From positions 32,573-96,572 of the forward strand of contig CAIYVX010000039.1 of assembly GCA_903929765.1 (NCBI GenBank): a DNA stretch of 64,000 nt, read 5' to 3'. The stretch is from an uncultured Planctomycetia bacterium (GTDB lineage Bacteria; Planctomycetota; Phycisphaerae; FEN-1346; JAACEH01). The position numbers and the translations under genes are program-made. Positions 4,841 to 54,817 of this stretch are shown here, piece after piece; the stretch's first letter is position 1, and each line of letters begins with the position of its first letter. The notes under the pieces are model-generated. The model ran no database searches and had not been told where the DNA came from. It saw only the letters and a list, made by a program, of their open reading frames with translations.

Positions 4841-4957
4841 GCCGTTACTGTCCACTGACCACTGCACACTCACCACTATTTCTTCAATTCCCCCGCCCCA
4901 CTCCGCCGATACAATAACCATATCCGTCCGATAACCCGGCCGGTCTTAGGTGACTCC

Positions 4958-5593: not shown

Positions 5594-5599
5594 AAATTT

Positions 5600-5810
5600 C
5601 ATCCGCCGTTGTTGTTGTTTCTTCAACCACACTCCTAACGTTGGGTGGCATGGTCTGGCGAAGACAGGCCATGAAGATCAACCACTCGACCGGAAGCCGT
5701 TGTTGTTTCTTCACCCCTTCCCTCGGTTGAGGACTTCTCGTCACCACCGCCCGAGCAGAATCCGCACTTCATGATTGGATATTGAGTGTTGGATATTGGA
5801 TATTCGCTGT
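5600..5810. repeat. Composite array: B2 (5641-5712), degenerate A, E2 (5770-5808)
   Basis: Same B -> A -> E module order as 4621-4833. Confidence 0.75.
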
Positions 5811-5893
5811 TTTTCTTCTCTTCACCAAACGCCAAAAAACACGGGCCGCGACGTTCTCCGCCGCGGCCCGCTTAATCTATCAATCACCTGAAA

Positions 5894-7189
5894 CTATCGT
5901 CCCGCCGCCACCACTTCCACCTTGCTCGCCTCCACCACCCACATATTCAAATCCGCTCGGTTCCGCTTCACCCCCCATACCTTCACCTTCAGTCCCAGCA
6001 ACTGGTCCAGTTGCGCCACGTCCCCGTTCAGCAGGCAAACGTATCGCCCTTCCGCGTTTTCCAGCCGGTACGAATAACCCATCGTCGCCGTCATCTTCCG
6101 CAACACCCCCTCGAAGTCCGGCTGAATCACCGAACTCCGACCCGCGGCCTCCGCCTCGCGCTTGGCCTGGTCTTTCGCCGCCGCCTCCTGAATCTCCGCC
6201 AGTTTCTTCGCCGTCTCCTCGCGCTCCGCCTTCTGCTTCTCCAGACCCTGCTGCAGCGCCTTCTGGAACTCGATCTGCTTGAGCGCCCGCGTCGCCGCCT
6301 CGCTCAGGTAATCCGCCTTCGCCTTATCCTTCACGTCGCGCAGCGAATCCACCAGCTCCGCGCTGAACTTTCGTTCCGCCAGCGGCTTCGCCAGCTCCGT
6401 CTCCAAATCCCCCGCCGCCTTCTCATACGCCGGCGTCTCTGGATCCAATTCCACCGGCTTGATCTCCGGCAACTTCACGCTCAGACCCGTCCCCGAAGAG
6501 GCCTCTCGGCTCCCGCGCGACACCGGCACCAAAAATTCATCCTTCACGTAAACCGTCGCTCCCTCCGGCAGCGCCACCGTGTAATACGGCCCCTCCTCGC
6601 CCTTGATCGTCACCGCCGTCTCCGCCGGCAACTGACCGATCACCGCCCACGTCCGGTCGCTACCAGGATCCTTCGCATACACCCGCGCCATCGTCGCCGT
6701 CACCGTCCCGCTCTTCGACGACGCCGGATCGCTCTTCACGTCGTCCTTCTTCACCAGCGCCGCCACGTTCAACTTCCCCGCACCCGTGATCGCGCTCCAC
6801 CCGTCCGACTCCGACTCCACCCGCACCCGCGTCGCCTCTTTCACCAGCGCCACGTCATAATAATAAAGCCCCGGGCCGCTCCGCACGTGCACCGCGTCGC
6901 CCTTGATCTCCATGTCCCGCGGATACTCCGCCGGAGCCGCCGCCACGTCCGTTCCGCCCGTCGCCAGGGCGCCTTCCGCCGCTGCCGGATGCGCCGGCCG
7001 CGCCGCCGTCGCGCTCGAACCCGCCCGCGCTCTGGTCGCCGAATGGCTAGCCGTCGTCTTCGGCTTTGCCGTCGTCGTATGCGTCGTCGTCCGACCTGTC
7101 GCATGGGCCGGCGTTGCCGATGTCGCCCCCCACGCCCCCGATGCCGACAAAACCAGTGCCCCCACGCTTAGTAAAATTGCTCGAATCAT
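5894..7189 (-). CDS. Secreted protein with two bacterial SH3-like domains and a coiled-coil C-terminus (hypothetical)
   Basis: Signal peptide MIRAILLSVGALVLSASGAWG. Two SH3b-like segments (VHVRSGPGLYYYDVALV..., YAKDPGSDRTWAVIGQLPAETAVTIKGEEGPYYTVALPEGATVYV). C-terminal region rich in K/E/A. Start chosen at the Met preceding the signal peptide. Confidence 0.55.
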   Translation of the reverse strand: MIRAILLSVGALVLSASGAWGATSATPAHATGRTTTHTTTAKPKTTASHSATRARAGSSATAARPAHPAAAEGALATGGTDVAAAPAEYPRDMEIKGDAVHVRSGPGLYYYDVALVKEATRVRVESESDGWSAITGAGKLNVAALVKKDDVKSDPASSKSGTVTATMARVYAKDPGSDRTWAVIGQLPAETAVTIKGEEGPYYTVALPEGATVYVKDEFLVPVSRGSREASSGTGLSVKLPEIKPVELDPETPAYEKAAGDLETELAKPLAERKFSAELVDSLRDVKDKAKADYLSEAATRALKQIEFQKALQQGLEKQKAEREETAKKLAEIQEAAAKDQAKREAEAAGRSSVIQPDFEGVLRKMTATMGYSYRLENAEGRYVCLLNGDVAQLDQLLGLKVKVWGVKRNRADLNMWVVEASKVEVVAAGR

Positions 7190-7369
7190 GGCCCCTGCCC
7201 TTTCCCTCTTCACGAGACTATGCCGCTTGTAACTTGTTCTTAATGAATTGCATAACACCCCGTGCAACGCCATCCAGACTACCACCCCCCTGCCAAACCG
7301 TCAATAGAAATTGGCCGCACCCTTGCAACCCCTTCCCCGCCCCGCTATCATCACCCCCGTAGTTGCTGT

Positions 7370-7600
7370 TTTTTCTGTTTCACCCATACCTTGGCCGGTG
7401 GGTGGCATGGTCCGGCGAAGACGGGCCATGAAGAGCAACCGTTAGATCGGAAGCCGTTGTTGTTTCTTCTTCACCCCTCTCCCTTGGGAGATAGTGGCAC
7501 GAAGTGCCGGGTGAGGGGTTTAGGCCCTTGCCCGCCCGAACGGATTCTGACTTCATGATTGGATATTCGTTATTCGATATTCTGCGGTTCGCCGTTTCTT
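7370..7600. repeat. Composite array: B3 (7399-7470), A6 (7482-7540), E3 (7553-7590)
   Basis: Third instance of the B -> A -> E order. Confidence 0.8.
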
Positions 7601-7788
7601 CCCCGGCGCCCTGGCGGGATAGGCTACCGAACCTCTCCACGCTCTCCGCCGCGTCCTGGCCGTCCGGCTCAGGCCCCATGTTCCTCCTCGCCCTCCTCGC
7701 CGCCGCCGTCCTCCTCCTCATTCTCCTCCTCCGCTGGCTCCTCTCCCGCTCGCGCCGCCGACCTTAAAATCTGATTCTCTTCGGCTTT

Positions 7789-7890
7789 TGAGGCCCCCAG
7801 CATTGCTGGGAGATGCCATTGTTTCTGTTGTTTTTGCCGTTTCTTTTCAATTTTTCATTTTTCATTTTTAATTTTTCATTTCACCTTACC
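7789..7890. repeat. C1 hairpin (GAGGCCCCCAGCATTGCTGGGAGATGCC) plus F2 AT-rich element
   Basis: Family C is GAAGCCCCCAGCACTGCTGGGGGATGCCGTTTCTTC. Copies at 10036-10075, 13396-13437, 33601-33645 and 33738-33776. Confidence 0.75.
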
Positions 7891-7983
7891 CCTCGCCCCC
7901 CCTCCTTTTTTCTTGAAATTATCGTACCGTTTCTCCGTTACAATACATCACAAGGAGCCAACTGTCTCTTTAGGAGAACCGTC

Positions 7984-9849
7984 ATGAGTACCTTGTCCCG
8001 TACCGCCGCACTTGTCTCTCTCGCCTTACTCTGTGCTTTCGCTGCTCCGGCTTTCGCCATGAGCCGCGGCCACGAGGCCCCCCTGCCCCCGCCCGGTGTC
8101 CAGGTCGCCGGCGTCGAAGTCCTGACGCGCGGCCCCATCCACGAAGCCTTTGCCGAACCCGTTATCTTTGACCCTGCCGCCGGTCTCATCGTCCCCGTCG
8201 CCCCGCCCGCTCCCATCAACGAATCCGCTCCGGAAATGGGCCCCGCCACTCCCGGCATGTCCTGGATCCCGGGCTACTGGGCCTGGGACCAGGATCGTAA
8301 CGGCTACATTTGGATCAGCGGCGCCTGGCGCCTGGCGCCGCCCAATTGTGCCTGGGTTCCCGGCTACTGGACTCCCGTCTCCAACGGCTACCAGTGGGTC
8401 GCCGGTTTCTGGCTCCCGGGCAACGCCCAGGAAGTCACCTACCTCCCCGACCCGCCGCCCTCTCAGGACATCGGACCCATCGGCCTCGCCCCCTCGCCCG
8501 ACACCGTCTGGATTCCCGGCGTCCAGGTCTGGCAGGGCCGGGGCTACGCCTGGCGACCCGGCTACTGGGCCGCCGCTCAGGCCAACTGGCTTTGGAACCC
8601 CGCCCACTACGCCTGGACCCCGCGCGGCTACATCTTCATCGACGGCTACTGGGACTATCCCCTCTCGCACCGCGGCGTCCTCTTCGCCCCCGCCGCCATC
8701 GAAGCCTCCGTCTACGGCGCCCCGGGCTTCGATTACACCCCCTCCGTCGTCCTGACCAGCGACATCTTTGAAGGCGCCTTCTTCACCTCGCCCGGTTATT
8801 CCACCTACTATTTCGGCGACTACTACGACGACTCCTACAGGACGCGCGGCATCTACCCCTGGTACTCCTACAGAGATCGACACGACTGGTACGATCCCAT
8901 CTACGCCCATCGCGAGTGGAACCACCGCTCCGACAATCCCAACTATGACCGCGACCAGAGACAGCTCTTCTCCTCACGGCAGTCCAACGTCAGCCTCCGA
9001 CCAGCCCGCACCTACAACGCCGAAGTCGACCGCCTCAGGAACCATCCCGAACTCACCGGCCGCTCACCCGCCATGTCCCAGCGAGCCAACGAGGCCGCCG
9101 CCGCTCGCAACACCGCCGCCGTTCCACTGGGCAGGTTGAACACCCAGGACCGCTCCCAGGGCGCCGCCGTCGAACAACAGGTCCATTCCTACACGCAACA
9201 GCGCACCAAATGGGAAGCCCCCGCCACCCAGCCCTCACGCAACGAACGCCCCGCCGTGCAGGAACGTCCCGCTGTCCAGCCCGCCGTCACCCAGCCCGCA
9301 CGCAACGAACGCCCCGCCGTCCAGGAACGTCCCGCCGTCCAGCCCGCCGTCAGGCCCGCCGTCAGGCCCGCCGAGCGACCGGCCGTTCAAGAGCGACCCG
9401 CCGTCCAGGAACGACCTGCCGTCCAGCCGCATCCCGCCGTCCAGGAACACCCGGTTGTCCAGGAACGACCTGCCGTCCAACCGCACCCCGTCGTCCAGGA
9501 ACGACCTGCCGTTCAGGAACGCCCCGCCGCTCAGCCCGCCTCCAGGCCTACCGTCCAGGAGCGTCCCGCCGCACCAACTCGCACCGCTCCTCCCGAGCGA
9601 GTCGCCATCCCGACCTCGCCCGTCCGTGGTCCGACTGTCCAACATGGTACTCCCAACCTCCCCGCCAGACCCGAGGCCCCGGCCCCTCGCGCCGCTCCGG
9701 TCGCTCCCGCTCCTCATGCCGCGCCGCCTGCTCCAGCCGCTCCGGCTGCTCCGGCCGCCCCGACCGCTCCCGCTCCTCATGCCGCCCCGGCTGCTCCGGC
9801 CGCCACTCCGACTCCGGATCATCAGGATCATGGCAACAAGCATAACTGA
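7984..9849 (+). CDS. Secreted YXWGXW-repeat protein with Pro-rich hexapeptide tandem-repeat tail
   Basis: RBS AGGAGA and signal peptide MSTLSRTAALVSLALLCAFAAPAFA. Repeated PGYWxW...GYxWxxGxW units follow. The C-terminal portion carries (ERPAVQ)n and AP-rich low complexity. Confidence 0.6.
   Translation: MSTLSRTAALVSLALLCAFAAPAFAMSRGHEAPLPPPGVQVAGVEVLTRGPIHEAFAEPVIFDPAAGLIVPVAPPAPINESAPEMGPATPGMSWIPGYWAWDQDRNGYIWISGAWRLAPPNCAWVPGYWTPVSNGYQWVAGFWLPGNAQEVTYLPDPPPSQDIGPIGLAPSPDTVWIPGVQVWQGRGYAWRPGYWAAAQANWLWNPAHYAWTPRGYIFIDGYWDYPLSHRGVLFAPAAIEASVYGAPGFDYTPSVVLTSDIFEGAFFTSPGYSTYYFGDYYDDSYRTRGIYPWYSYRDRHDWYDPIYAHREWNHRSDNPNYDRDQRQLFSSRQSNVSLRPARTYNAEVDRLRNHPELTGRSPAMSQRANEAAAARNTAAVPLGRLNTQDRSQGAAVEQQVHSYTQQRTKWEAPATQPSRNERPAVQERPAVQPAVTQPARNERPAVQERPAVQPAVRPAVRPAERPAVQERPAVQERPAVQPHPAVQEHPVVQERPAVQPHPVVQERPAVQERPAAQPASRPTVQERPAAPTRTAPPERVAIPTSPVRGPTVQHGTPNLPARPEAPAPRAAPVAPAPHAAPPAPAAPAAPAAPTAPAPHAAPAAPAATPTPDHQDHGNKHN
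9238..9585 (+). repeat. Intragenic 18-nt tandem repeats (GAACGNCCNGCCGTCCAG) encoding (ERPAVQ)n within the YXWGXW protein gene
   Basis: About 15 units, including a 63-nt higher-order duplication (RNERPAVQERPAVQPAVTQPA x2). Confidence 0.85.
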
Positions 9850-9852
9850 AGT

Positions 9853-10200
9853 ACTGTAGGGTGGCTGCTTGCAGCCACGCAGAAGTAAAACGCCAAAGGC
9901 CGCCCCAAGTTTCTCTTGGAGCGGCCTTTGCTTTTGCCTTGGCCGTTTCTTTTTCCGGGTGCCACACTTTGAAGCCCCGGCGCTTCGCCGGGGCCAAAGT
10001 GTGTGCTTCTTCTTTTTCTTCTTCTTCTTTTTCTTTTGAAGCCCCCAGCAGTGCTGGGGGATGCCGTTTCTTCTTCTGTTGCTGCTTCTTCACCCCTCTC
10101 CCTTGAGGGGAGAGGGTAGGGTGAGGGTGCACCTGTTGCTCCCATATCGCTGGGGGTTGCCGTTTCTTCTCCTTCTTCTGTTCCTTCGGCCTGAAGCCTG
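9853..10200. repeat. Composite array: G2, D2 (9957-10008), C2 (10036-10075), A7 (10091-10132), H3 (10185-10205)
   Basis: Five different repeat families concatenated with CT-rich linkers between two convergent genes. Confidence 0.8.
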
Positions 10201-10202
10201 CT

Positions 10203-11054
10203 TCACTTCTCCGTCTTCGGATCAAACGCATCCCTTAGCCCATCACCCACAAAATTCATGCACAACAACGTTAGTCCCAAAAATAAACACGGAAAAAACA
10301 GCAGCCACCAGCAATTCACCACCGGGTTCACCGCGTCCACCGCGTCGCTCGCCAGCGTCCCCCAGCTCGCCTGCGGCGCCGACACCCCCAACCCCAGAAA
10401 ACTCAAAAACGATTCCTGCAAGATCGCCGCCGGTACCGTCAGCGTCGCACAAACAATAATCGGACCCACCAGGTTCGGCAGCAGGTGCCGAACCAGGATC
10501 CGCCCCGGCCCCGCCCCCAGCGCCCGCGCCGCCGTCACATACTCCTCCTGCCGCAGCCGCAGCACCTGGCCGCGCACAATCCGCCCCATCGTCAGCCACG
10601 ACACCGCCCCGATCGCCACGAACAGCACCCAGAACTTCTGCTGCGCATAGACCAGCAGCAAAATCACCAGCAATATATATGGCAATCCATACAGCGTATC
10701 CACCACCCGCATCATCCAGCGGTCCGTCGCCCCACCCGCCTGACCCGCAATCGCCCCGTAAAACGTCCCGATCACCACGCTCACCGCCGCTGCCGCCAGC
10801 CCCACCACCAGCGATATCGCCCCGCCCGCCAGCGTCCGCCGCAGCAAATCCCGACCGTTCGTGTCCGTCCCGAACGGATGCGACCGCGACGGACTCCACG
10901 GGTGCGGCTGACCCACCGCCGCCTCTTCCGCCTTCGACACCCCCGCCCCCGCCTCCGTCGTCGCCGCCGTCACAAAACACGCCGCCGCCACCACCGCCAG
11001 CACCACCACACCCCCCAAAGCCGCCCGGTTCGACCTGAACCGCCGCCAAGCCAT
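10203..11054 (-). CDS. ABC transporter permease, DppC/OppC (BPD_transp_1) family
   Basis: HPFGTDTNGRDLLRR and EYVTAARALGAGPGRILVRHLLPN signature with six TM segments. No partner dppB/D/F genes adjacent. Confidence 0.85.
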   Translation of the reverse strand: MAWRRFRSNRAALGGVVVLAVVAAACFVTAATTEAGAGVSKAEEAAVGQPHPWSPSRSHPFGTDTNGRDLLRRTLAGGAISLVVGLAAAAVSVVIGTFYGAIAGQAGGATDRWMMRVVDTLYGLPYILLVILLLVYAQQKFWVLFVAIGAVSWLTMGRIVRGQVLRLRQEEYVTAARALGAGPGRILVRHLLPNLVGPIIVCATLTVPAAILQESFLSFLGLGVSAPQASWGTLASDAVDAVNPVVNCWWLLFFPCLFLGLTLLCMNFVGDGLRDAFDPKTEK

Positions 11055-11079
11055 CTCCAGCGGACTCCGCCCCGGTTTT

Positions 11080-11296
11080 GATTTTGTTGCTTTTTCTTCT
11101 TCATCCCTCGCCCCAGACGATGGGTGGCATGGTCCGGCGCAGACGGGCCATGAAGAGGAAACCGTTCGACTGGAGGCCGTTGCTTCTTCTTCACCCCTCT
11201 CCCTTGAGGGGAGAGGGTAGGGTGAGGGTGTTGCTGTTTCTTCTGCTTCTTCTTTTGTTGCCGTGCCTTAAGCCTTAGGTCTTAAGCCTTAAGCCT
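11080..11296. repeat. Composite array: B4 (11122-11195), A8 (11202-11230), H4 (11264-11296)
   Basis: Lies between the dppC-like gene start and the groES stop. Confidence 0.8.
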
Positions 11297-11585
11297 ATTT
11301 CTCAATCTTCGCCAAAATATCCGTCTCGTGCAGCACCACGTACTCCGTGCCGTCGATCTCGACTTCGGTCCCCGAATACTTGGCATACAGCACGTCGTCG
11401 CCCTTGGCCACGCTCATCTTGGCCCGCTCGCCGTTTTCCAACAGCTTGCCGGGGCCGGTGGCGATGACTTTGCCGCGCTGCGGCTTTTCCTTCGCCGTGT
11501 CGGGCAACACAATCCCGCCCGCCGTCTTCTCTTCCGCTTCCACCTGCTCGATTACCACGCGATCATCCAACGGTTTCAGTGCCAT
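11295..11585 (-). CDS. groES: Co-chaperonin GroES
   Basis: 96 aa: [46 protein letters not shown]... Confidence 0.95.
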
Positions 11586-11672
11586 AGCTTCAAATCTCCT
11601 GAGTTTGGTTTTCTCTTTCTAATTATCGTTTCCCGGCGAAACATGGCCGCAAGCGGCCATGCCACCCGTTTT

Positions 11673-13364
<1,692 letters not shown>

Positions 13365-44820: not shown

Positions 44821-45021
44821 TCATCCGCCTCCGACGAAACTTACTATTTCGACCTTGTCGCCGGCGACCAGAGGCGTCGAACTATGTTCGGCCTTGGGGA
44901 CGATCTGCTCGTTGACCTCGACGGCGATCCGCCCAGGCTGAATGCCCATTTCCGCCAGCAGGGCCGTGATGGTCAGCCCCTGAGCGACGGAGCGCGACTC
45001 ACCGTTGACCTTGATTTCCAT
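44821..45021 (-). CDS. thiS: Sulfur carrier protein ThiS
   Basis: MEIKVNGE...VEIVSFVGGG with C-terminal GG, directly upstream of thiG on the same strand. Confidence 0.8.
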   Translation of the reverse strand: MEIKVNGESRSVAQGLTITALLAEMGIQPGRIAVEVNEQIVPKAEHSSTPLVAGDKVEIVSFVGGG

Positions 45022-45266
45022 TTTTTCCATCGCCTTCCTCTCCGATCTCGACGGTGCATTATAGAGCGCCGCCGACACGGAGGCAACGCCCGTTGCGTTT
45101 TATCCTCGTTGCGTTTTATCCCTATCCCTTGGGAGAGGGTGGCCCGAAGGGTCGGGTGAGGGGTTGAGGCCAAAACAAAACTCAATTCCGACAATCAATA
45201 AAATTTCTTGCACCAGCTTCCTGACAAGTTATACTAATTCCATCACGTCATTTGGGAGATACAAGA

Positions 45267-46247
45267 ATGTTTACCATCCGATTCAAGTGCACCCACTGCA
45301 AGGCCGAATTGCATTCGCCGGAGTCAATGGTCGGCCGAACACTGGTCTGCAAGAAATGCGGCTACATGAACATCATCCCGCCCAGTAACTGGCGGAAATT
45401 TTTCCAATTTGACGAGCGACAAGGCCTGACGTTGAAGATTGCGGTGAGCGTGGTGGCCTTGTCCTTATTTATCGCCGCGTTATGCATGGCGGTCTCGCAT
45501 ATGAAAAGTCCCGAAAAGGCTCTTCAAGAGAAGTACGAAACTCTTAAGACCGATAATGACGCCTTAGTAACCGACTTTGCCAAGATCAGCGAAATCAATG
45601 ACAAGCTTAAAACGCGGGTCCAACAGGACATGAAAGAAATCAAGGGCCTCGAAACGGAGTTGAGTCGTCTACATGAACAGATTAACAACCTACAAGCAAG
45701 CCAAGCAAAGGCCAATGAACCACCGATGAGGCCGGTTGAAATGCCAGATCAAATTGCGATGTCACCTTCGCACCAACCGGCATTCTCCCCCCCGTCAATT
45801 CCTGCTCCTGCCCCAGCGCCAACCACGGCCATTTCAGCGGTTCCTGCCTTGAAGAAGGAAATGCCCAATGCAGATCAGGAGAAAATACGCAACATGTTGA
45901 GCTGGCTTCGTTCAAATAGAACATGTATATCTTGTGGCGGAACTGGATTAATCCAAGGAGCGGGTTGCTCTGACTGCACATCCAGGACCGAAACAAAAAC
46001 ATTAATGCTTACCCACAATAAACGCGGAAACCGAACTCCGACCGATGATTATTATGTCACCGGTTTCAAAGGAAACGGTCTCGCCAAAATCTCCCATCTT
46101 CGCCCATCTCTTGATTCTATCCTCGGACTCTGCCAGAAATACGCCGATTGCATTCCTCCGGAACTTTTATCAGTTGCAAAGGGAACTTGCTGTGACATTG
46201 ACCCTGGCATGGCATCTCATTTTCCATCCCCGGTACATGTCAAGTAG
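45267..46247 (+). CDS. Zinc-ribbon / TM / coiled-coil protein with C-terminal CxxCxGxG motif (hypothetical, low GC)
   Basis: RBS GGGAGA. N-terminal FKCTHCKAEL...CKKCGYMN, one TM helix, a coiled-coil stretch, and C-terminal CISCGGTG...CSDC. About 48% GC. Confidence 0.5.
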   Translation: MFTIRFKCTHCKAELHSPESMVGRTLVCKKCGYMNIIPPSNWRKFFQFDERQGLTLKIAVSVVALSLFIAALCMAVSHMKSPEKALQEKYETLKTDNDALVTDFAKISEINDKLKTRVQQDMKEIKGLETELSRLHEQINNLQASQAKANEPPMRPVEMPDQIAMSPSHQPAFSPPSIPAPAPAPTTAISAVPALKKEMPNADQEKIRNMLSWLRSNRTCISCGGTGLIQGAGCSDCTSRTETKTLMLTHNKRGNRTPTDDYYVTGFKGNGLAKISHLRPSLDSILGLCQKYADCIPPELLSVAKGTCCDIDPGMASHFPSPVHVK

Positions 46248-46518: not shown

Positions 46519-47631
46519 CTACTGCCCGGTTTGAATCTTGCTCAGATCGTTCTCGCCGACAAAGCGATAAGTGCCGCCGTTATGGGCGGCGATCTCCTTG
46601 AGAAGCGGCTCGCCGTCAGAGTAGACGAAACAAATGGTGTGAATGATGGCGTCCTTGCGGACGTTGAGGCGGTCGATCTGGCCGGCGATGCCCCGGTCGA
46701 ATTCGCCGTCGGTCAGGAGGTAGACCGTGTTGGCGCCGACCTCGAAGGTGCGGCGCAAGGCTTCGGAGGGGTCGGTCTGGCCGATGGCGATAATGCTGTC
46801 GATGAAATCGTAGGCTATGTTCTTGTTCGACTCGGTGGCGTATACCATCTTCCGCACCGGCATTTCGACGGCCGGGCCGGAGGAATAGAAGACGATGAAG
46901 AAGGAGTCGGAGGGACGCAGGGCGCGAATCGAACGCTTCATCTCGTGCTTGACATAAGAGAAGCTGTCGGTCATCGAGCCGGACCGGTCGACGATGTAGG
47001 CGACGCGACGCGGGCCTTTGGGGTTGGTGTCGATGAAGATCGTGTTGGAAGGTCGTTCACCGTTGCCGCGCCCCAGCCCGGCGGCCAAGAGGTCGCTGCC
47101 CAGGCCGCCGGGATCGCCGAGGCCGATCGTTTCGATGTTGGTAGCCGGGCGGTCGAAATCCGCTATTCCCTTGAACTCGTCGTTGCGGACTTTCTTGAAA
47201 ACATAGTTGCCGGTTGTGGCATTGGGGTGGTAGAGGTTATGGCTGGGTGTCGGGTCGGGATTGGTGTACCGGGGGTGAGCCGTCTGCACCAGGTCGGTCA
47301 CAATCTCAACTTTCTCTCGCGGCGGTTGCATGGCGGTGCAGGTGACCAGGGCGACGAGGAGCACGGCGAGGTGGCAGACGGCGCTGGTGCCCCAGGAGGG
47401 CAGGTAGGCGGCGACGAAGGCGAGGATGCGTCCGCCGCGCGTCGTCGGCAGGTCGGTTTCATCGCCGGGCGGCGCATCGGACGAGGCGGGCGTGTGGGCC
47501 GGACCGACGGCGACGGCGCCGAAGGGGACGGTCACGGCCTGGCGGCAATAGGGACATTGAACGCGGGTTCCGGGGTTCTCATCGACTTGCAGGCGCTTGC
47601 CGCACTGCTGGCAGCGAAATCGCAGACTCAT
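46519..47631 (-). CDS. VWA-domain protein with N-terminal zinc ribbon and TM anchor (VWA paralog 1)
   Basis: FRCQQCGKRLQ...CPYCRQ zinc ribbon, one TM helix, and MIDAS DRSGSM. The VWA core is shared with the three paralogs upstream. Confidence 0.75.
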   Translation of the reverse strand: MSLRFRCQQCGKRLQVDENPGTRVQCPYCRQAVTVPFGAVAVGPAHTPASSDAPPGDETDLPTTRGGRILAFVAAYLPSWGTSAVCHLAVLLVALVTCTAMQPPREKVEIVTDLVQTAHPRYTNPDPTPSHNLYHPNATTGNYVFKKVRNDEFKGIADFDRPATNIETIGLGDPGGLGSDLLAAGLGRGNGERPSNTIFIDTNPKGPRRVAYIVDRSGSMTDSFSYVKHEMKRSIRALRPSDSFFIVFYSSGPAVEMPVRKMVYATESNKNIAYDFIDSIIAIGQTDPSEALRRTFEVGANTVYLLTDGEFDRGIAGQIDRLNVRKDAIIHTICFVYSDGEPLLKEIAAHNGGTYRFVGENDLSKIQTGQ

Positions 47632-47870
47632 GGCAGGCCTCCCCGGCTCTGCCGCCGCAGCGCAAAGGTGCCGCGTCGGCAGAACCGACAAATGCGCCCA
47701 GTCACATGCCGTACCAAGGCCGGGCAAGTTCCGAGTGAGCATCTGTCGCAAGGGCCCTTGCGCTGACCGGCGAACCGCACCTGCGGCACGGTTGTCAGTC
47801 GTATCCAAATACGTTCTCTAACCGGATTGGTTCGGGAGAAAAAATAAATTTCAGAAATGTTTTTGCCGGA

Positions 47871-47913
47871 ACCCCTCTCCCTTGGGAGAGGGTGGCCCTT
47901 CAGGGCCGGGTGG
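47871..47913. repeat. Family-A element A17
   Basis: CCCCTCTCCCTTGGGAGAGGGTGGCCCTTCAGGGCCGGGTGGGG. Confidence 0.75.
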
Positions 47914-47918
47914 GGCTA

Positions 47919-48830
47919 TTATCGCACAGGACCCCAAGCGTCGCGGTCCACCGCAGGCAAATCGCAACCGACATCGAATTTTCCTTTGGGTGCAACGACC
48001 CGCCTGGTCCAAGCCGGTGCAACCAAGCTGGCCCCGTACTGGCGGTAGGCCAACTCCAGCTTACGCGCCTCGCCCGTAACTGTGCCGCACTCTTCGAGTC
48101 CTTCACTGAACCGCCCGCGCCCTGCGTTGACCGCGTGTTTCGCCTCGCCCGCCGTGATGATGGGATAGTCCCCTATTTTTTCAAGTTGCGGCCATTGGAA
48201 CAAGATTTCCCGGACTTGACCGCCGCGACCGACTTGGACGCTGATTCGCGCACTGGGTAAATCCCGACCATCAATTTGTCGGAAGAACCAAACGCCCATG
48301 GCGGCGGAACGGACATCCATTGAGTATGTATTGTTGCAAACCATAGGCCGACCAACTTCGTCGCGCCATAGATTCGTCGCCTGGAGGCATTTGCGGGCTA
48401 TTGCTATGGCCTGCTCTTGGTCGGGAAATGGTTGTCCAGCCAGGGGCGGATCTTGGCGCCTCAAACTATGGTAACTCGCGGTTTTCCCCTCAGCGAGCCA
48501 GGATGCCGCGGGCACTTCAAGACCGTTAAGTTTCTCTTCGATTTGCAACAAATCCACCGCGTTTCGCTGCTGTTCGACAATGCGGTAGACAGCCATGGTG
48601 GCGGGGGCCTTCGGAAGAGGCTGCGGCCAAGTCAGGTCGAGTTCCCAGGCAGAATAGCGATAGTCTTCTTCGGCCTCGTCGGCCTGCAACTCCGGCAGTG
48701 GCGGCAACGCCTGACCACCATTCGCCGAGGCGTCCGTATTGTGACGCGGAGTCGAACAGCCACAATCCAAAATGGCAGCGAAGGCACAAATCATGACGAG
48801 AAACATCAAGAAGGCAACGCTGGTCTTCAT
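47919..48830 (-). CDS. Hypothetical lipoprotein
   Basis: Signal peptide with LDCGC lipobox-like Cys. About 52% GC. No recognizable domain. Confidence 0.5.
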   Translation of the reverse strand: MKTSVAFLMFLVMICAFAAILDCGCSTPRHNTDASANGGQALPPLPELQADEAEEDYRYSAWELDLTWPQPLPKAPATMAVYRIVEQQRNAVDLLQIEEKLNGLEVPAASWLAEGKTASYHSLRRQDPPLAGQPFPDQEQAIAIARKCLQATNLWRDEVGRPMVCNNTYSMDVRSAAMGVWFFRQIDGRDLPSARISVQVGRGGQVREILFQWPQLEKIGDYPIITAGEAKHAVNAGRGRFSEGLEECGTVTGEARKLELAYRQYGASLVAPAWTRRVVAPKGKFDVGCDLPAVDRDAWGPVR

Positions 48831-48870
48831 GAGTTACACTCCAAAACATAAGGTGATAAATTTCCGTTTG

Positions 48871-50769
48871 TCAGACGCCCAGGCGGGCGAAGACTTTTTC
48901 GGCACGTTTGCGGAGCGGCTCGGGGACGCCGTCGCCGTATTTGTCCAAGAGGTTTTTGGCCAACTCGATGGTCTTCTGGAGTTTGGGCAGCGGGTCGCCG
49001 GCGTTTTTTTCCAGGTAGCCGATCAGGCGGTCGAGGCGGTCGCGATCCTCGGCGGACATCGGCGCCGACGGGGCCGACGGGGCGCGGGGTTGGCCGACAA
49101 AGCGGTAGGCCCCGCCGTTGGCGGCGGCGATTTCGCGCAGGACGCCGGCGCCGATGGAACTGCCGAAGGCAAAGGTGTGGACGACCGTGACGTGGTGCTT
49201 GTTCAGGTCGGCCACCTGTTTGACGGCGGCCGCGCCGGGATCGCCGTCGGTCAGGAGGCAGAGTACGGTCGGATCGAGGGCGAAGGCTTTGGTCAGGCCG
49301 GCTTTGGGATTGGCCCGGCCGTGCGGCACGAAGTCGGCGATGAATTTCAGGGCGGCCTCTTTGTTGTCGTCGCCGGCGGCGATCAGCCCGCCGGGGAGAA
49401 CCTGGGCCGAGTTGCTGCCGCAGAAAACGATGGAAAAATTCTGCTCGCCGGCCAGGGCGGCAATGGACTTGTCCAACTCGGCCTTCACCAGGGCCAGGTC
49501 GCCGCCGGCGGAGGCGGAACAGTCGACCAGGTAGACGACCCGTTTGGCCTGGCGGAAAGGAATGCCGAAAAAGGTCTGGTGCGACTCGGTCTCCTCGTCG
49601 GCCAGTTCCGGGGGCCGGGCAGCGGCGGCGGCCAACTCGGCGGCCACGACCGGCGGAAGTTCGCCGGCGAGATGCGCGAGCCAGGTCGCCGCTTCGTCCT
49701 TCAGCCGCATGGCCTCCTGGCGATCGTCCTTATTCAGGTCGATCACCTGGAGACAGCGGTCGAGGTTCTCGTCGGCCTGTTGCCAGAGGAGCCGCTTGAA
49801 ATAAAGTTCCTTGGTCTCGCCGGCCAAAGTCGCCTCGGCCCGGGCCAGAGCCAGCAGGTCGCCGCCGGCGCCGCCGGAGGCCATGTCCAGGGCGTTGGCC
49901 AGCCTGGCTGCGGCAGCGTTGCCCGAGGCTCGCAACTGCTTGGCGGCGTCGGCGGGCTTGCGGTCGCGCCCGAGTCTGGCAAGGCCGAGCAGGAGGCGGG
50001 CGTCGGGATGGTCCCCCGGCTCGGCCAGATCGGCCTGGGCTTTGGAAATCGAATCATCGAGTTTCTTGAAAAACTCCACGCCCGCGCGGCCCCAGTCCAG
50101 AGAGTCCGGCGGCGAGAGGCTCGCCTGTGCGGCAGCGACGGCGGCGGCCTCCAGAGTTCTCGCCGCTCCGGCCCCGTCGCCCCGGGCGGCCAGGAGTACA
50201 GCATATTCCGCCGCATCGTGACCAAAAGTTTTATTCAGCCAATCCGCCTGGCGCCCCGAAGACAACTCGGCCAGGACGCGCGGGCCGAGGGCCAGCATCT
50301 TTTCGAGGCAGCCCGCGCGCGGGCGGAGTGACATCGACTTCTGGGCGCCCAGGGCGTTGTAGGCCAAGAGGCCGCCGCCGACGGAGGCGCTGGCCAGCGA
50401 GACGACCTGATCGAGACCGTAGCCGACAAAATCGGGCGTGTGGCTGCCCTGGCGAACTTCGTCGAAAATTTTCTCGGCGAGAGTCAGGCCGTCGGCCGAG
50501 CCGGTTACAGCTTTCAGGTCCTGGCCAAAGAGTTCGGCGAACTGTTGCTTCGCCTTGCGGCTGACCGGATGCTCCGGCGGCACCGGATCGATCCGCACAG
50601 GCGGCGCGGGGGCGGCGGGAACGGCGCTGGCGGCGGAACTCGCGGGAAGATCGGAGTTTGCGGCGCGCGCCGCTACGGAGGCCAGAAGCATCGCCAGAAT
50701 AATCGCCGCCAGTTGACCGCCCATCGTCGCCCTCGGTTGGTGAACGTAACGCCCAAACGTTCGGGACAT
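48871..50769 (-). CDS. VWA-domain protein with long N-terminal alpha-helical domain (VWA paralog 2)
   Basis: Signal peptide, about 400 aa of helical region, then VVYLVDCSASAGG (DxSxS MIDAS) ... LLTDGD ... GGAYRFV. Native high GC. Confidence 0.7.
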   Translation of the reverse strand: MSRTFGRYVHQPRATMGGQLAAIILAMLLASVAARAANSDLPASSAASAVPAAPAPPVRIDPVPPEHPVSRKAKQQFAELFGQDLKAVTGSADGLTLAEKIFDEVRQGSHTPDFVGYGLDQVVSLASASVGGGLLAYNALGAQKSMSLRPRAGCLEKMLALGPRVLAELSSGRQADWLNKTFGHDAAEYAVLLAARGDGAGAARTLEAAAVAAAQASLSPPDSLDWGRAGVEFFKKLDDSISKAQADLAEPGDHPDARLLLGLARLGRDRKPADAAKQLRASGNAAAARLANALDMASGGAGGDLLALARAEATLAGETKELYFKRLLWQQADENLDRCLQVIDLNKDDRQEAMRLKDEAATWLAHLAGELPPVVAAELAAAAARPPELADEETESHQTFFGIPFRQAKRVVYLVDCSASAGGDLALVKAELDKSIAALAGEQNFSIVFCGSNSAQVLPGGLIAAGDDNKEAALKFIADFVPHGRANPKAGLTKAFALDPTVLCLLTDGDPGAAAVKQVADLNKHHVTVVHTFAFGSSIGAGVLREIAAANGGAYRFVGQPRAPSAPSAPMSAEDRDRLDRLIGYLEKNAGDPLPKLQKTIELAKNLLDKYGDGVPEPLRKRAEKVFARLGV

Positions 50770-50854
50770 TATACCCGCTCTGATAATTTTGCGTGGCCAA
50801 AACAGCGGCGGCCGGCTGAAGCCGGCCGTTTGCTCATGCTTTCTGTGAATTCAT

Positions 50855-51523
50855 TCATTTCGTCATCAGCATCTTGACATCTTCCTCGTTCACAAAATGA
50901 TACGTCCCCTCGTTCTCTTCGGCGATCTTCCGGAGGAGAGGTTCCCCTTTAGAGTGAATGAAGCTGATCGTATTAACCATCACTTCCTTCTTGGGGTTAA
51001 GCTTCACAATGAGATCAGCTATGCCCGGTTCGAAATCACCATCCGTCACGATGTAGATCCGGTCCGGCTGACAGTCGAAGGCCTTCTTGATCGCCTCCGC
51101 CGGATCCGCCTGTCCGGAAGCAACTATGCTATCTATAAAATCGTAAGCCTTTTCCTTATTGGGAACGGTAGCCGGGAGCATTTTATGCTTACCGGTTGGC
51201 AAATCGAGCGTCGGACCGGAGGAGAAGAATGTGACCCAAAAACTGTCACTCGGTCGCAAAGACCGGATTGAGCGTTTAAGCTCGTGCTTTAAGTAAGGAA
51301 CCGTGTCGGACATCGATGCGGAAAGGTCAATTACGTACACTACCTTTTTCGGCGGTGGAGGTGGCGGAGGTGGGGGGTCGATGATGACACCTTCTGAAGT
51401 GGTCTCTGTCTCCGACGGTTGTGCCGCGCTCATCGCGCTGCCCGGTGTCTCTGCCGGCGGTGGATTTCGTGTCGTGCAGTCCGCCAACAGCATAATAATA
51501 ACCAACATAAGCCCGGTTCTCAT
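50855..51523 (-). CDS. VWA-domain lipoprotein (VWA paralog 3)
   Basis: Lipoprotein signal (MLLADC), P9 linker, and VVYVIDLSASM MIDAS ... IVTDGDFEP ... EGTYHFV. About 52% GC. Confidence 0.75.
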   Translation of the reverse strand: MRTGLMLVIIMLLADCTTRNPPPAETPGSAMSAAQPSETETTSEGVIIDPPPPPPPPPKKVVYVIDLSASMSDTVPYLKHELKRSIRSLRPSDSFWVTFFSSGPTLDLPTGKHKMLPATVPNKEKAYDFIDSIVASGQADPAEAIKKAFDCQPDRIYIVTDGDFEPGIADLIVKLNPKKEVMVNTISFIHSKGEPLLRKIAEENEGTYHFVNEEDVKMLMTK

Positions 51524-51657
51524 GGCTTCTCCTTGAAGTCAGTGCGGCCGCCACAAGAAAATACGTCCCCAGGCCGAGATAGTTCAAAAAAATTGGCCCC
51601 GACGCGAGCCGGGGCTGAGAAAAGAAGAAGAATCCGCCCGCCGTGACAAATTCTCGG

Positions 51658-52395
51658 TCACGACGCCGCTTTGGGGGCCGGGGGTTTCTGGCTGCGCGGC
51701 GTGGCGGAGGGCAGTTCGGGTTCCTTTTCCAGTTTTTTGGCGTCCTCCTCGTTGACGAAGCGGTACTTGCCATTGTTGTCCTCGGCGATGCTTTTGAGGA
51801 GCTTCCGGCCGTCGGAGTAGATAAAACAAATGGTGTTGATACGTACCTTGTGTTTGGCGTTGAGCTGTTTGATCAGGTCGGCGGTCTTCGCGTCGAACTC
51901 GCCGTCGGTCAGGATGTAGATGACGTCGGGCTGGAGGGTGAAGGCCTTCTTCAAGGAGTCGGAAGGATCGGTCTGGCCCTCGGCCTTAATCTTATTGATA
52001 AACTCGTAGGCTTCGCGCTTGTCTTGGTCGTTGGCCGGCGCCAGGCCCGCCGTCTTCGCCGGGAAATCGATGGTCGGACCGGAGGAGAAGAAGGTTATGA
52101 AGAAGGACTGGTCGGATTCGAGAGAACGAATGGAGCGTTTGACCTCGTTGCGGAGATAGCCGATAGTTTCGGTCATGGAACCGGAATGGTCGACGACATA
52201 GGCAATCTTGCGGGCCTTGCCGGTGACGATGCCAAAGAATTCATGGCCGGGCTTGACGGCGCTCGAAGCCGAGGTGGCTGAAGCCATGACGGCGCTGGTG
52301 CTCGCCGCCGGAACGGCCGAACTGTCGGTGTTGGCCGCGAAGAGGAGGTTGAGGAAAAGAAGCAATAGGAAAGCCGCCAGAATTCCGGTTTTCAT
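51658..52395 (-). CDS. VWA-domain secreted protein (VWA paralog 4)
   Basis: Signal peptide MKTGILAAFLLLLFLNLLFAA. IAYVVDHSGSM MIDAS ... ILTDGEFDA ... NGKYRFV. Confidence 0.75.
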   Translation of the reverse strand: MKTGILAAFLLLLFLNLLFAANTDSSAVPAASTSAVMASATSASSAVKPGHEFFGIVTGKARKIAYVVDHSGSMTETIGYLRNEVKRSIRSLESDQSFFITFFSSGPTIDFPAKTAGLAPANDQDKREAYEFINKIKAEGQTDPSDSLKKAFTLQPDVIYILTDGEFDAKTADLIKQLNAKHKVRINTICFIYSDGRKLLKSIAEDNNGKYRFVNEEDAKKLEKEPELPSATPRSQKPPAPKAAS

Positions 52396-52471
52396 TTTTG
52401 GCTCAGAATGAAAGAACAGTTTATGACCGTGGCACCCGATCTTCAACTTTTGCCATTTTACTTTTACCTTT

Positions 52472-54043
52472 TTACTTCTTTCCTTCCGCCGGCTTGGCCT
52501 CCGGCTCTTTCTTGTCGCCGAGCTTGTTGAGTTTGGCCAGGGCCTGGTTGATGTCGAGGCCGGTCAGGGCTTTGACGGCCTCGGGCATCTGGGTCATGAT
52601 GCTGATCACGTCCTGGGTGACCTTATTCGCCCCAGCGGTAGCCCCGCCGCCGTTGCTGACGATGACGATCTTCTCGGTCTTGGCGAGCGGCTCGGCAATG
52701 GCCCGGGCCAGGGCCGGAGCGTTTTCGAGGAAGATCTGGATGATGGCGGCTTCGTTATAGTTGCGCCAGGCGGCGGCTTTCTTTTCCATGGCCTCGGCGG
52801 TCGAATTTCCCTGAGCCAGAATAACATCGGCCTCGGCCAGACCTTTGGCCTTGTTCGCCGCAGCCTCGGCCAGACCCGTGGCCTGGACGACTTCGGCGGC
52901 AGCGAGACCCTTGGCCTTGCTGGCGGCAGCTTCGCCTTCGCCGATCTGGGCGTTGGCCCGGCCCTGGCCTTCGGCCTCGGCTTCGAGGCGGAACCGCTCG
53001 GCCGAAGCCAGCGTTTCGATCCGGTAGCGTTCGGCGTCGGCGGGACGGTTGACGGTGGAATCGAGTTCCTTCTGCTTGCGGGTGATTTCCTTTTCCTGCA
53101 CGTCGATCATGTTTTCCTTCTCGACGCTGAGGATGTGGATTTCTTCGGCCTTGACGAGCTGCATGGTCTTGTTCTGCTGGAGGTCGTAAGCGAGGTCGGC
53201 CTGGGCCTTCTTCTCGTTGACGGCGGCCTGATAGTCGGCCCGCTTCATTTCGTAGTCGCGCTGGGCCTGGGCGATCTGGGCGTCGGCGGCGAACTTGGCT
53301 TCCTGGCCCAGGCGGTTGGCCTCGGCGGAGCGGATCATGGCGTCGCGGTCGGCTTCGGCCTGGCCGATGATGGCGTCGCGTTTGACCTGGGCGGTGCGCG
53401 GCCGGCCGAGGGCTTCGAGGTAGCCCTGGTTGTCGCGGATGTCGCGGAGGGTGAAGCTGACGATGGAGAGGCCCATGTTGGCCATGTCGCCGGCGGCGAC
53501 TTCCTGGACGCGCTGGGCGAAGGCGTCGCGATTCTTGTAAATTTCTTCGACGGTCAACATGCCGACGATGGCCCGGAGATGGCCTTCGAGGGTCTGGTGG
53601 GCGATCTCGGCGACGTGCACCCGGTCCATCGACAGGAACTGCTCGGCCGCGGTGGAAATCGAAACGTCGTCGCCTTTGACCTTGATCTGGGCCACGCCGT
53701 CAACCATGATCGGGACGCCGGTCACCGTGTAGACCTCCGGCGTCTTGATGTCGATGGTGATGATTTCCAAGCTCAGGATGTCGTACTTCTCGAACATCGG
53801 ATAGACAAAGGCGCCGCCGCCCTTGACGATGCGGAAGCCGACGCGGCCGGTGGCCGTGCTGTGCTTCATACCGGAGATGACCAGCACCTGGTTCGGCCCG
53901 ACCTTGATCCAGCGGCGGGCAATCATCCAGACGATCGTGAAAGCCACAAACAAGAAGGAGCCAACGACGATTACCGCCCAGCCGTACGACCCCTTCTCGG
54001 TCCCGAGAACATCGGCCAACACGCTACTCCACATGGCTGCCAT
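52472..54043 (-). CDS. Flotillin (SPFH/band-7 family, FloT/YqiK-like)
   Basis: N-terminal TM and SPFH domain, followed by a long Ala/Glu-rich coiled-coil (EA repeats) typical of flotillins. Confidence 0.9.
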   Translation of the reverse strand: MAAMWSSVLADVLGTEKGSYGWAVIVVGSFLFVAFTIVWMIARRWIKVGPNQVLVISGMKHSTATGRVGFRIVKGGGAFVYPMFEKYDILSLEIITIDIKTPEVYTVTGVPIMVDGVAQIKVKGDDVSISTAAEQFLSMDRVHVAEIAHQTLEGHLRAIVGMLTVEEIYKNRDAFAQRVQEVAAGDMANMGLSIVSFTLRDIRDNQGYLEALGRPRTAQVKRDAIIGQAEADRDAMIRSAEANRLGQEAKFAADAQIAQAQRDYEMKRADYQAAVNEKKAQADLAYDLQQNKTMQLVKAEEIHILSVEKENMIDVQEKEITRKQKELDSTVNRPADAERYRIETLASAERFRLEAEAEGQGRANAQIGEGEAAASKAKGLAAAEVVQATGLAEAAANKAKGLAEADVILAQGNSTAEAMEKKAAAWRNYNEAAIIQIFLENAPALARAIAEPLAKTEKIVIVSNGGGATAGANKVTQDVISIMTQMPEAVKALTGLDINQALAKLNKLGDKKEPEAKPAEGKK

Positions 54044-54082
54044 CCTTTCGTTAGATGATGTCGGGCCAGGGCCCGACCAACA

Positions 54083-54817
54083 TTATGCCTTCGTTTCTTC
54101 CGGTTTCACCTCGGCCGTATTGCCCACCCAGCGCGTAAGAACCACCACGCTGTGACACGGCAGCATGTGACCGGCGACGCTACGGGCCTGGGCGGTGAAG
54201 CGTGCCCCGCGGCAGACGTAAGCGATTTCGCCCACGCCGTCGGCGGGAATCGCCGTTATCACTTCTGCCGTCACGCCGACGGTCTCGTCCTGCGAGGGGC
54301 TGCTCGACCCCTGTACCTTCCGGATAATCGTATAGAAAAAGAAGAACGTCAGCACGCCCATGCCGATGCCGGAGGTGGAACTCGGCAACAGCGAAAGAAC
54401 TCCCCAGCCTAAGACCTCGGTAAAGATGATCCCGGTGCCGCCGAAAGTGATCAGCGTCATGGCGACGATGGGCGGGCTGAAGGGGCTGATGGCGGGTTCG
54501 TGGGAGATGTCGCCGACGGCATGGCCGCCGACGTCGGCCGAGGTCGCGTCGTAGCCGGCGACGACGTCGTGGCCGCCGCCCAGGTCGTGCGGCACGGAGA
54601 CATCGTGCCCGCCGCCGCCGAAATCGTGGCCGCTGAAGGCCCCGAAGATGGCGGCGAAGACGGCGTAGCCCAGGCCCAGGAGGAAACAAAGGAGATACGC
54701 GGACCACAACAAGGTAACACCCAGGATGAGCATATCAAGTCCTCCCGCGCCGCCGGCCGCTTTGCCCATGAATGGAAAGGCGATGTCAACTTTAGATTCC
54801 CGCCGCCCGGCGGTCAA
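54083..54817 (-). CDS. NfeD-like membrane protein (flotillin-associated, C-terminal OB-fold)
   Basis: Multi-TM N-terminal part and a C-terminal beta-rich segment. Lies directly upstream of flotillin in the classical nfeD-floT arrangement. The start may instead be the internal Met at 54733. Confidence 0.7.
   Translation of the reverse strand: MTAGRRESKVDIAFPFMGKAAGGAGGLDMLILGVTLLWSAYLLCFLLGLGYAVFAAIFGAFSGHDFGGGGHDVSVPHDLGGGHDVVAGYDATSADVGGHAVGDISHEPAISPFSPPIVAMTLITFGGTGIIFTEVLGWGVLSLLPSSTSGIGMGVLTFFFFYTIIRKVQGSSSPSQDETVGVTAEVITAIPADGVGEIAYVCRGARFTAQARSVAGHMLPCHSVVVLTRWVGNTAEVKPEETKA

Follow-up and report, generated by a model that had tools for sequence, protein, structure and literature searches.

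NfeD-flotillin operons are familiar from Bacillus subtilis (yuaF-floT) and Escherichia coli (yqiJ-yqiK), and in FloT and YqiK both the SPFH domain and the coiled coil are cytoplasmic. Also well known is the Bat aerotolerance operon of Bacteroides and Leptospira, made up of MoxR, DUF58, BatA, BatB, BatC-TPR, BatD and BatE. The subject here is a 64,000-nucleotide stretch of DNA (the window) from an uncultured Planctomycetia bacterium. On its minus strand, a gene pair of the first sort, nfeD and a flotillin gene (floT), is followed by four genes for proteins with von Willebrand factor type A (VWA) domains and, among these, a gene for a secreted protein. An earlier note on this DNA took the seven co-directional genes to be a candidate system in which flotillin is coupled to a battery of VWA proteins. 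All seven open reading frames (ORFs) are there, and, in keeping with the note, a literature search found no bacterial flotillin-NfeD-vWA or SPFH-vWA neighborhood system described. The claim that the genes make up one conserved system is the one that finds little support.

The closest described proteins are inner-membrane-tethered vWA proteins whose organization is TolA/TonB-like, found in bacteria of the Planctomycetes-Verrucomicrobia-Chlamydiae (PVC) group (Mol Biol Evol 2025, PMC12204202). They have a transmembrane (TM) helix with an SHLS motif, in which the His is essential, a disordered linker, and a C-terminal vWA domain, and their gene lies next to TPR-tolQ-tolR-tolR. They have been proposed to act as force transducers driven by the proton motive force, and they are not functionally characterized (PMC12204202). 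A further system with comparable parts is the Agl-Glt gliding machinery of Myxococcus, with GltJ, a Zn-ribbon TonB-like protein, AglRQS, a TolQR-type motor, and tetratricopeptide repeat (TPR) proteins (PMC11135422), and with the vWA adhesin CglB (as cited in PMC12204202). I propose that the VWA genes of the window are a young and variable insertion of paralogs from the transducer family beside an ordinary nfeD-floT pair, two unrelated things lying side by side, an account that I consider probable rather than secure.

A variable slot between floT and thiS

The closest flotillins were located in their contigs (designated by L numbers) and the gene order around each was compared. Where the flotillin is 75% (L174) or 73% (L175, L176) identical to that of the window, the order is cobO-nfeD-floT-thiS-thiG-GCAxxG-helicase, and the slot between floT and thiS is empty. 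Where it is 72% identical (L172, L173), the slot holds one gene for a Zn-ribbon protein with multiple TM segments (L172:11630-12310, L173:2964-3716), and where it is 74% identical (L170, L171) a DUF3467 gene follows floT (L170:11555-11932). No VWA gene follows floT in these relatives with 72-75% identical flotillin. The backbone genes of the window are 53-77% identical to those of such relatives, and the window carries in addition about 7.4 kb between floT and thiS: VWA4, VWA3, VWA2, the secreted-protein gene (here called Lipo), VWA1, and a convergent gene called ZnRcc. Since floT runs straight into thiS in L174-L176, this block of VWA, Lipo and ZnRcc genes is a lineage-specific insertion.

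VWA genes occupy the slot only in contigs whose flotillin is 86-97% identical to that of the window, and the content differs each time. Downstream of floT, L164 has VWA4, directly adjacent and 88% identical, and VWA3 (56%); L166 and L167 have a VWA3-like gene (60%) and VWA1 (80%); L168, with a 91% identical flotillin, has VWA2 (68%) and VWA1; and L169, with an 86% identical flotillin, has a GH20 gene (920 aa, 8064-10826), a VWA gene, a gene for a 204-aa lipoprotein, and a VWA2-like gene. L169 also has an extra SPFH gene of 208 aa (5481-6107) between nfeD and floT. Contigs nearly identical to the window repeat its whole arrangement.

L168 is instructive: its flotillin and NfeD are 91% and 87% identical to those of the window, and the VWA2 next to this flotillin only 68%. 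From such comparisons the VWA genes appear to evolve much faster than the flotillin and NfeD genes beside them. The restriction of the adjacency to contigs with 86-97% identical flotillin is explained by common descent from a single insertion. Judged by gene order and identity, then, the flotillin-VWA linkage looks like the product of one insertion, recent and reshuffled locally, into a housekeeping block that is conserved; it is carried by a shallow clade of Planctomycetota, probably within the Phycisphaerae. As a flotillin-VWA system the array is probably unimportant, because the linkage is young, local and variable.

The block into which the genes were inserted runs ADH, aldolase/SDR, cobO, nfeD, floT, thiS, thiG, GCAxxG, DinG-like helicase. 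Its edges on either side of the pair and insertion are, upstream and outside the array, cobO (CobA/BtuR-like, PF02572; 54835..55362, minus strand), with orthologs 57-85% identical in the same position in L168-L176, and downstream thiS (44821..45030, minus strand), which directly follows floT in relatives. Within it, nfeD-floT is an ordinary, vertically inherited flotillin pair with nothing unusual about it. The ORF of nfeD, which encodes an NfeD-family membrane protein (54083..54817, minus strand), extends to a TTG at 54817, and its true start is probably the ATG at 54769, giving 228 aa. The name given to it by the earlier note gains no direct match in Pfam or NCBIfam scans, nor did a profile of NfeD homologs match PDB sequences, but the assignment holds because the homologs (E 1e-16 to 1e-113) carry PF25842 (NfeD_TM) or, some of them, PF01957 (NfeD); several are named NfeD by NCBI. 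The gene lies directly upstream of flotillin in all relatives examined. The flotillin, an SPFH/Band_7 protein that is FloT/YqiK-like (52472..54043, minus strand; the public gene call uses another start), matches Pfam Band_7 (PF01145) at E 4e-29, and has a weak match to the Flot domain (E 5e-4), under the cutoff. It scores 452 bits with the NCBIfam FloT model against an equivalog cutoff of 700, and is therefore a member of the flotillin family and not a FloT equivalog. It has over 7,500 homologs, many annotated as flotillin.

The VWA paralogs and their relatives beside ExbB/ExbD motors

All four VWA genes match Pfam VWA_3, VWA or VWA_2 (VWA_3 at E 1e-7 to 6e-13). That they are paralogous, as the earlier note had it, is amply borne out: the proteins are 30-47% identical pairwise with 41 invariant columns, and the similarity can be detected even in the DNA (60-78% identity, families D1-D4), so the paralogy is far beyond chance. 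The note had also seen an intact DxSxS in the metal ion-dependent adhesion site (MIDAS), and DxSxS is indeed present in all four, but in two of them the MIDAS as a whole is not intact. Its residues are D-S-S-T-D in VWA1 and VWA4 and D-S-S-A-D in VWA2 and VWA3. The Thr is kept in 197 of 212 sequences of the family, and 5 of the 15 that lack it are flotillin-adjacent copies. The losses (to Ala, Gln or Glu) in VWA2, VWA3, L164:1060-1749, L168:2720-4768 and L169:10898-11662 are thus concentrated in paralogs next to flotillin.

The four proteins have different N-terminal modules, again as had been noted. VWA1 (46519..47631, minus strand) begins with a Zn-ribbon (aa 1-42) and a TM helix; some 95 aa of disordered linker then lead to a vWA domain (aa 205-367) whose MIDAS is complete. 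In its AlphaFold2 model the Zn-ribbon is predicted with pLDDT (predicted local distance difference test) above 90, the helix at 83-100 is followed by disorder at 101-194 (pLDDT <50), and the vWA domain has pLDDT of about 90. The helix begins with S83-x3-H87 (PSWGTSAVCH). Foldseek gives VWA matches to E 5e-13, the best being vWA domains of ITIH, alpha2-delta, CLCA1 and BatB. As modeled, the architecture is that of the TonB/TolA-like vWA force transducer.

The others are built differently. In VWA2 (48871..50769, minus strand; public gene call starting at 50724, 617 aa), a signal peptide is followed by an N-terminal domain of some 360 aa, which the earlier note had described as helical, by a vWA domain (VWA_3 at E 5e-12) that has Ala in place of the MIDAS Thr, and by a C-terminal tail. 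Its N-terminal domain has no family match and is common to proteins of L168, L169, L031 and L009; a relationship to the operon TPR proteins c4 or c5, described below as neighbors of the wider family, was considered and rejected on comparison. The same architecture of signal peptide, 360-aa domain and vWA is found in the distant Phycisphaerae L031 and L009, at loci linked neither to ExbB nor to flotillin. VWA3 (50855..51523, minus strand) has a poly-Pro linker and a vWA domain, also with Thr replaced by Ala. It is a probable lipoprotein by its sequence, with an atypical lipobox (LADC); its homologs have canonical lipoboxes with AGC. By word-based protein search, VWA3 has only 8 relatives. VWA4 (51658..52395, minus strand; VWA_3 at E 6e-13) is a plain signal peptide followed by a vWA domain with complete MIDAS. 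A motif scan found the SxxxH TM helix missing from VWA2, VWA3 and VWA4 and from their flotillin-adjacent orthologs.

What do VWA proteins of this kind do elsewhere? A pattern scan over one genome per species gave 78 VWA loci, nearly all labeled Phycisphaerae or Planctomycetota, and a metagenome scan gave 80 more. When the proteins of the window were compared by tblastn with the DNA 10 kb to either side of each genome locus, no flotillin, NfeD or Lipo was found. Of 159 VWA-family loci (genome and metagenome) only one has flotillin next to the VWA gene, on a short contig that comes from a close relative (L083 and L167 are both this contig). Among the 109 loci with enough flanking sequence, ExbB lies within 5 kb downstream in 89, flotillin lies upstream in 2, both retrieved by way of flotillin, and 18 have neither, so that no locus with informative flanks found from the VWA side has flotillin nearby. 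ORF clustering, confirmed by Pfam, shows what the conserved neighbors are: a TPR protein of about 350 aa, a protein of the MotA/ExbB family, two or three ExbD proteins, and a TPR protein of about 950 aa, typically in the order VWA, TPR, ExbB, ExbD, ExbD, TPR. A Pfam scan of the operon of L012 found no TonB or TolA gene, and the vWA proteins therefore appear to fill that role.

Among the homologs linked to ExbB and TPR genes, SxxxH stands at the start of the TM helix in 134 of 140 by a motif scan, and an N-terminal cytoplasmic zinc ribbon (CxxC...CxxC) is present in 67 of the 140 (for example L012:9371-10498 and L008:9407-10480). Tandem pairs, TM-vWA and Zn-ribbon-TM-vWA, are common, and a conserved lipoprotein gene often lies antisense between them. 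This lipoprotein (c6), of about 260 aa and with no Pfam domain, was found in more than 40 loci by hidden Markov model, as at L012:8239-9024 and L036:8316-9062, both on the minus strand. Many loci (L005, L007, L010, L012 and others), as well as a flotillin homolog (P0014), are labeled uncultured Anaerolineales or Anaerolineaceae. They share operons and 45-75% identical proteins with metagenome-assembled genomes of Phycisphaerae and Planctomycetota, and the labels are probably wrong.

A distance analysis places ExbB/TPR-linked proteins closest to VWA1, and a TPR-linked Zn-ribbon/TM/vWA protein, that of L163, nearest to VWA3. Indeed, VWA1, VWA3 and VWA4 each stand nearer to Zn-ribbon-TM-vWA proteins linked to TPR and ExbB (L163, L086, L005, L007, L008) than to each other, which fits slowly evolving parent genes with diverged duplicates. 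Synteny with motor genes is a feature of the family and not of the window, so the VWA genes of the window are displaced members or paralogs. The earlier note's single conserved system finds no support from either side: ExbB lies downstream in most loci with informative flanks, and no VWA gene comes after floT in the 72-75% relatives. The note itself had allowed that the proposal would be undermined if, among other things, VWA homologs never occurred elsewhere with nfeD and floT. Since co-occurrence is limited to a shallow clade, with adjacency only where the flotillin is at least 86% identical, this is largely what was found.

What the inserted genes may do

The account that I favor would run as follows. 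In one clade of Planctomycetota, the roughly 7.4 kb inserted between floT and thiS would turn over fast and hold paralogs of vWA force transducers. VWA1, with its cytoplasmic Zn-ribbon, TonB-like Ser-x3-His helix, long disordered linker and presumed periplasmic MIDAS vWA head, would use the SxxxH helix to dock on a motor of the ExbBD/TolQR type whose genes lie elsewhere in the genome, and its head would engage a partner in the outer envelope, as the C-terminal domains of TonB and TolA do. VWA2, VWA3 and VWA4 would be derived copies in which the motor-binding helix was exchanged for a signal peptide or lipobox, becoming motor-independent vWA binders in the periplasm or on the outer-membrane side that may serve as partners, competitors or adhesins. 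Loss of the MIDAS Thr in two of them suggests relaxed or changed ligand chemistry. Flotillin and NfeD would be neighbors through the history of the insertion, and at most VWA4 would share their promoter.

The spacers between the genes speak to this last point. The earlier note had given gaps of 18-135 bp. Five are in keeping with this (nfeD-floT 39 bp, floT-VWA4 76, VWA4-VWA3 134, VWA3-VWA2 130 or, with the longer VWA2 start, 85, and VWA2-Lipo 40), but Lipo and VWA1 are separated by 287 bp that include a palindrome resembling repetitive extragenic palindromic (REP) elements. A hairpin scan found no stable hairpin in the 76-bp gap between floT and VWA4. The gap between VWA4 and VWA3 contains a terminator-like structure (51586..51615, minus strand), the GC hairpin GCCCCGGC-UCGC-GUCGGGGC followed by CAAUUUUUUU with a run of seven U. 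The gap between VWA3 and VWA2 contains an all-GC hairpin of 8 bp (50809..50828, minus strand; z -2.3) with a run of U downstream nearby. The Lipo-VWA1 spacer has two hairpins, one of them formed by the REP-like palindrome CCCTCTCCCTTGGGAGAGGG (47873..47892). The hairpins after VWA4 and VWA3, and the 287 bp with a REP-like palindrome ahead of VWA1, suggest several transcription units, probably nfeD-floT-VWA4, VWA3, VWA2-Lipo and VWA1. Of the VWA genes, only VWA4 is likely to be transcribed by read-through from nfeD-floT.

The REP-like palindrome, CCCTCTCCC(TT/AA/TC)GGGAGAGGG, occurs 10 times in the window (at 1699, 4701, 7475, 13443, 27545, 38285, 44716, 45120, 47873 and 55471), where 0.04 copies are expected. 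The four copies checked against gene coordinates, at 44716, 45120, 47873 and 55471, are intergenic and near gene ends, and those at 45120 and 47873 have the tail GGTGGCCC in common. G+C content at third codon positions (GC3) is a mosaic across the block: 0.73-0.86 (mostly about 0.82) in the backbone genes, 0.78-0.82 in VWA1, VWA2 and VWA4, 0.61 in VWA3, 0.62 in Lipo and 0.535 in ZnRcc. A search for marks of mobile DNA around the insertion turned up no integrase, no tRNA and no direct repeats on its flanks, and the sole repeats are segments of the VWA paralogs and the REP elements.

Two genes of the block are not VWA genes. Lipo (47919..48830, minus strand) encodes a secreted or membrane-anchored protein of 303 aa. 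The earlier note had called it a lipoprotein, a call that is weak, with an atypical lipobox and no conserved Cys among the homologs. It has no Pfam or NCBIfam match, no homolog checked has a Pfam domain, and the family is very rare: a search of 1.84 billion representative proteins gave 19 matches at E <=1e-3. The fold predicted for Lipo is a tandem of the YycI/YycH/PepSY-like kind, an extracytoplasmic regulator or binding fold. Lipo differs from YycH/YycI and PepSY-type regulators in having no family match at the level of sequence and in having no histidine kinase or protease gene nearby. It was compared with the antisense lipoprotein c6 that lies between tandem VWA genes of ExbBD operons, and this identification was rejected for want of similarity. 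Lipo was found in no other VWA locus and is therefore not a conserved partner. ZnRcc (45267..46247, plus strand), a Zn-ribbon/TM/coiled-coil/CxxCxGxG protein, is convergent with the array and low in GC (0.49), just as had been described, and is present only in near-identical contigs.

There are other ways to read the block. In the one closest to the earlier note, nfeD-floT and the VWA array would form one envelope module within the clade, flotillin microdomains organizing VWA1 (by its Zn-ribbon or helix) and the secreted paralogs into an adhesion or binding array. The genes from nfeD to VWA2 do lie on one strand with gaps of 39-134 bp, no hairpin comes between floT and VWA4, and in five contig types of the clade VWA genes follow floT, in four of them directly and in L169 beyond the 920-aa GH20 gene. 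Yet the adjacency is missing at 72-75% flotillin identity and from about 155 other VWA-family loci, and conservation within so shallow a clade weighs little. Moreover, prediction puts all four vWA domains outside the cytoplasm, whereas flotillin would have its SPFH domain and coiled coil inside it, and only VWA1 has membrane or cytoplasmic parts. Terminator-like hairpins and the 287-bp REP-containing spacer interrupt the array, and GC3 is mosaic within it. I regard the module as quite unlikely. A bolder version has the transducer family of the clade yielding fast-diversifying, motor-less secreted and lipoprotein paralogs that are expressed from nfeD-floT or along with it, flotillin scaffolds organizing the orphan VWA1 and its soluble partners as a new envelope module for adhesion or force transmission; this would be a long shot. 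A different possibility is that the inserted block is a diversifying island of conflict or surface variation, of anti-phage decoy receptors or variable adhesins, in a permissive slot, the link to ExbBD being one of ancestry only. Such an island would suit the differing gene content of near relatives, a slot after floT that holds different genes in each lineage, VWA divergence far faster than that of flotillin and NfeD, the atypical GC3 of VWA3, Lipo and ZnRcc, MIDAS erosion concentrated in flotillin-adjacent copies, and the extreme rarity of the Lipo family. It would be harder to square with the lack of any PADLOC match, of any enzymatic effector, NTPase, protease or toxin domain in Pfam and NCBIfam scans, and of integrase, tRNA or flanking direct repeats, and with a VWA1 that keeps its motor-binding motif and complete MIDAS. 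This too I consider unlikely. Or the extra paralogs may be neutral duplicates on their way to loss, the arrangement having no function beyond VWA1. The MIDAS Thr is gone from VWA2 and VWA3, presence varies among relatives, and VWA3 shows low GC3 and departs, with LADC, from the AGC of its homologs. However, no ORF is broken, and independent metagenome contigs carry identical copies; the orthologs of VWA2 and VWA4 are full length and 68-88% identical; and the VWA2 architecture recurs in distant Phycisphaerae (L031, L009). Neutral decay seems to me very unlikely.

A young insertion of transducer paralogs beside an unrelated flotillin pair has its own difficulties, which weigh against it. The same-orientation association of floT with VWA genes has been kept in five distinct contig types despite the turnover in content, and this persistent adjacency, together with the short, hairpin-free gap between floT and VWA4, makes possible a functional or regulatory tie to nfeD-floT within the clade. 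The hairpin and promoter scans from which transcription units were drawn report consensus matches only. No ExbB, ExbD or TPR homolog is present anywhere in the 64-kb window, and the motor of VWA1 is therefore hypothetical. That the VWA family belongs with the vWA force transducers of PMC12204202, whose reference protein is from Tichowtungia, is probable and is judged from architecture and synteny. Finally, when VWA1 is compared with the SHLS motif, only Ser and His align: Leu (+11) is Ala and Ser (+15) is Cys.

Elsewhere in the window, AT-rich stretches in ORFs at about 3.7, 7.85 and 43.8 kb give one recurring 10-letter translation. Positions 1-12000 have a strongly negative GC skew (-0.21 to -0.39) that ends abruptly near 12 kb, and the plus-strand genes of this region encode an HtpX-like protease, two amidase-like proteins, and a 678-aa protein with Pro-rich repeats of the ERPAVQ type (7813-9849).

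Comparison with known systems

Of the systems in which vWA proteins are known to take part, several can be set aside. Pfam and NCBIfam scans of the cluster genes gave no kinase, phosphatase, NTPase or effector domain of the sort that marks TerY-P triads and vWA-ternary systems, and no MoxR AAA+ ATPase or DUF58 in any cluster gene, the neighbors being cobO, thiS and thiG; the earlier note had likewise seen no MoxR, kinase or phosphatase. Among eight proteins scanned with PADLOC, the seven genes had no match and ZnRcc had weak coiled-coil matches only. Comparison with the Bat operon is closer, in that tandem membrane-associated vWA paralogs and TPR proteins are found in the operon of the wider family, and BatB (3ibs) and 4jdu are among the structural matches. 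The locus differs from the Bat operon in lacking the MoxR ATPase and DUF58 genes, in that the partners of the family are ExbB/ExbD motors, and in that the best structural and sequence matches are of the VWA_3/ITIH type and not BatA/B.

The nfeD-floT pair itself is like yuaF-floT and yqiJ-yqiK, a TM-rich NfeD-family gene directly upstream of an SPFH/flotillin gene, and differs from them in the VWA genes downstream, an addition specific to the clade. With the Agl-Glt machinery the resemblance does not go beyond the list of parts. Both have a single-pass, motor-associated protein bearing a cytoplasmic Zn-ribbon, together with a TolQR-like motor, TPR proteins, and a lipoprotein or adhesin with a vWA domain. 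Here, unlike there, the vWA domain is fused to the transducer itself.

It is the transducers of PMC12204202 that come closest. The earlier note had allowed that its VWA paralogs might match a well-characterized family. They match a published family, but one that is not functionally characterized, and it is not that of the Bat proteins, whose partners MoxR and DUF58 were not found. VWA1 and its homologs have the helix with the Ser and His of SHLS, then a disordered linker of some 95-100 residues, then the vWA domain at the C-terminus; at 89 of 109 loci the homologs have TPR, ExbB/TolQ and two or three ExbD/TolR genes as neighbors. The differences are these: VWA1 is orphaned from any motor gene in the window; three paralogs lack the helix and have a signal peptide or lipobox, copies that the accessible text of the paper does not describe; about half of the Phycisphaerae copies have an additional cytoplasmic Zn-ribbon, and the word zinc occurs 0 times in that text; and the loci surveyed here have their vWA gene upstream of the motor genes, where the paper reports it downstream. 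What is new, then, is the orphaned transducer with its three helix-less paralogs, their rapid turnover, and the Zn-ribbon carried by roughly half the transducers of Phycisphaerae. The roughly 90 VWA-TPR-ExbB-ExbD-ExbD-TPR loci, with a near-invariant SxxxH helix and MIDAS, give independent comparative support to the force-transducer idea of 2025. The fast-evolving, helix-less paralogs, secreted or lipoprotein, recommend themselves as candidate ligands, competitors or decoys for the transducer head, and could help identify what these uncharacterized motors pull on.

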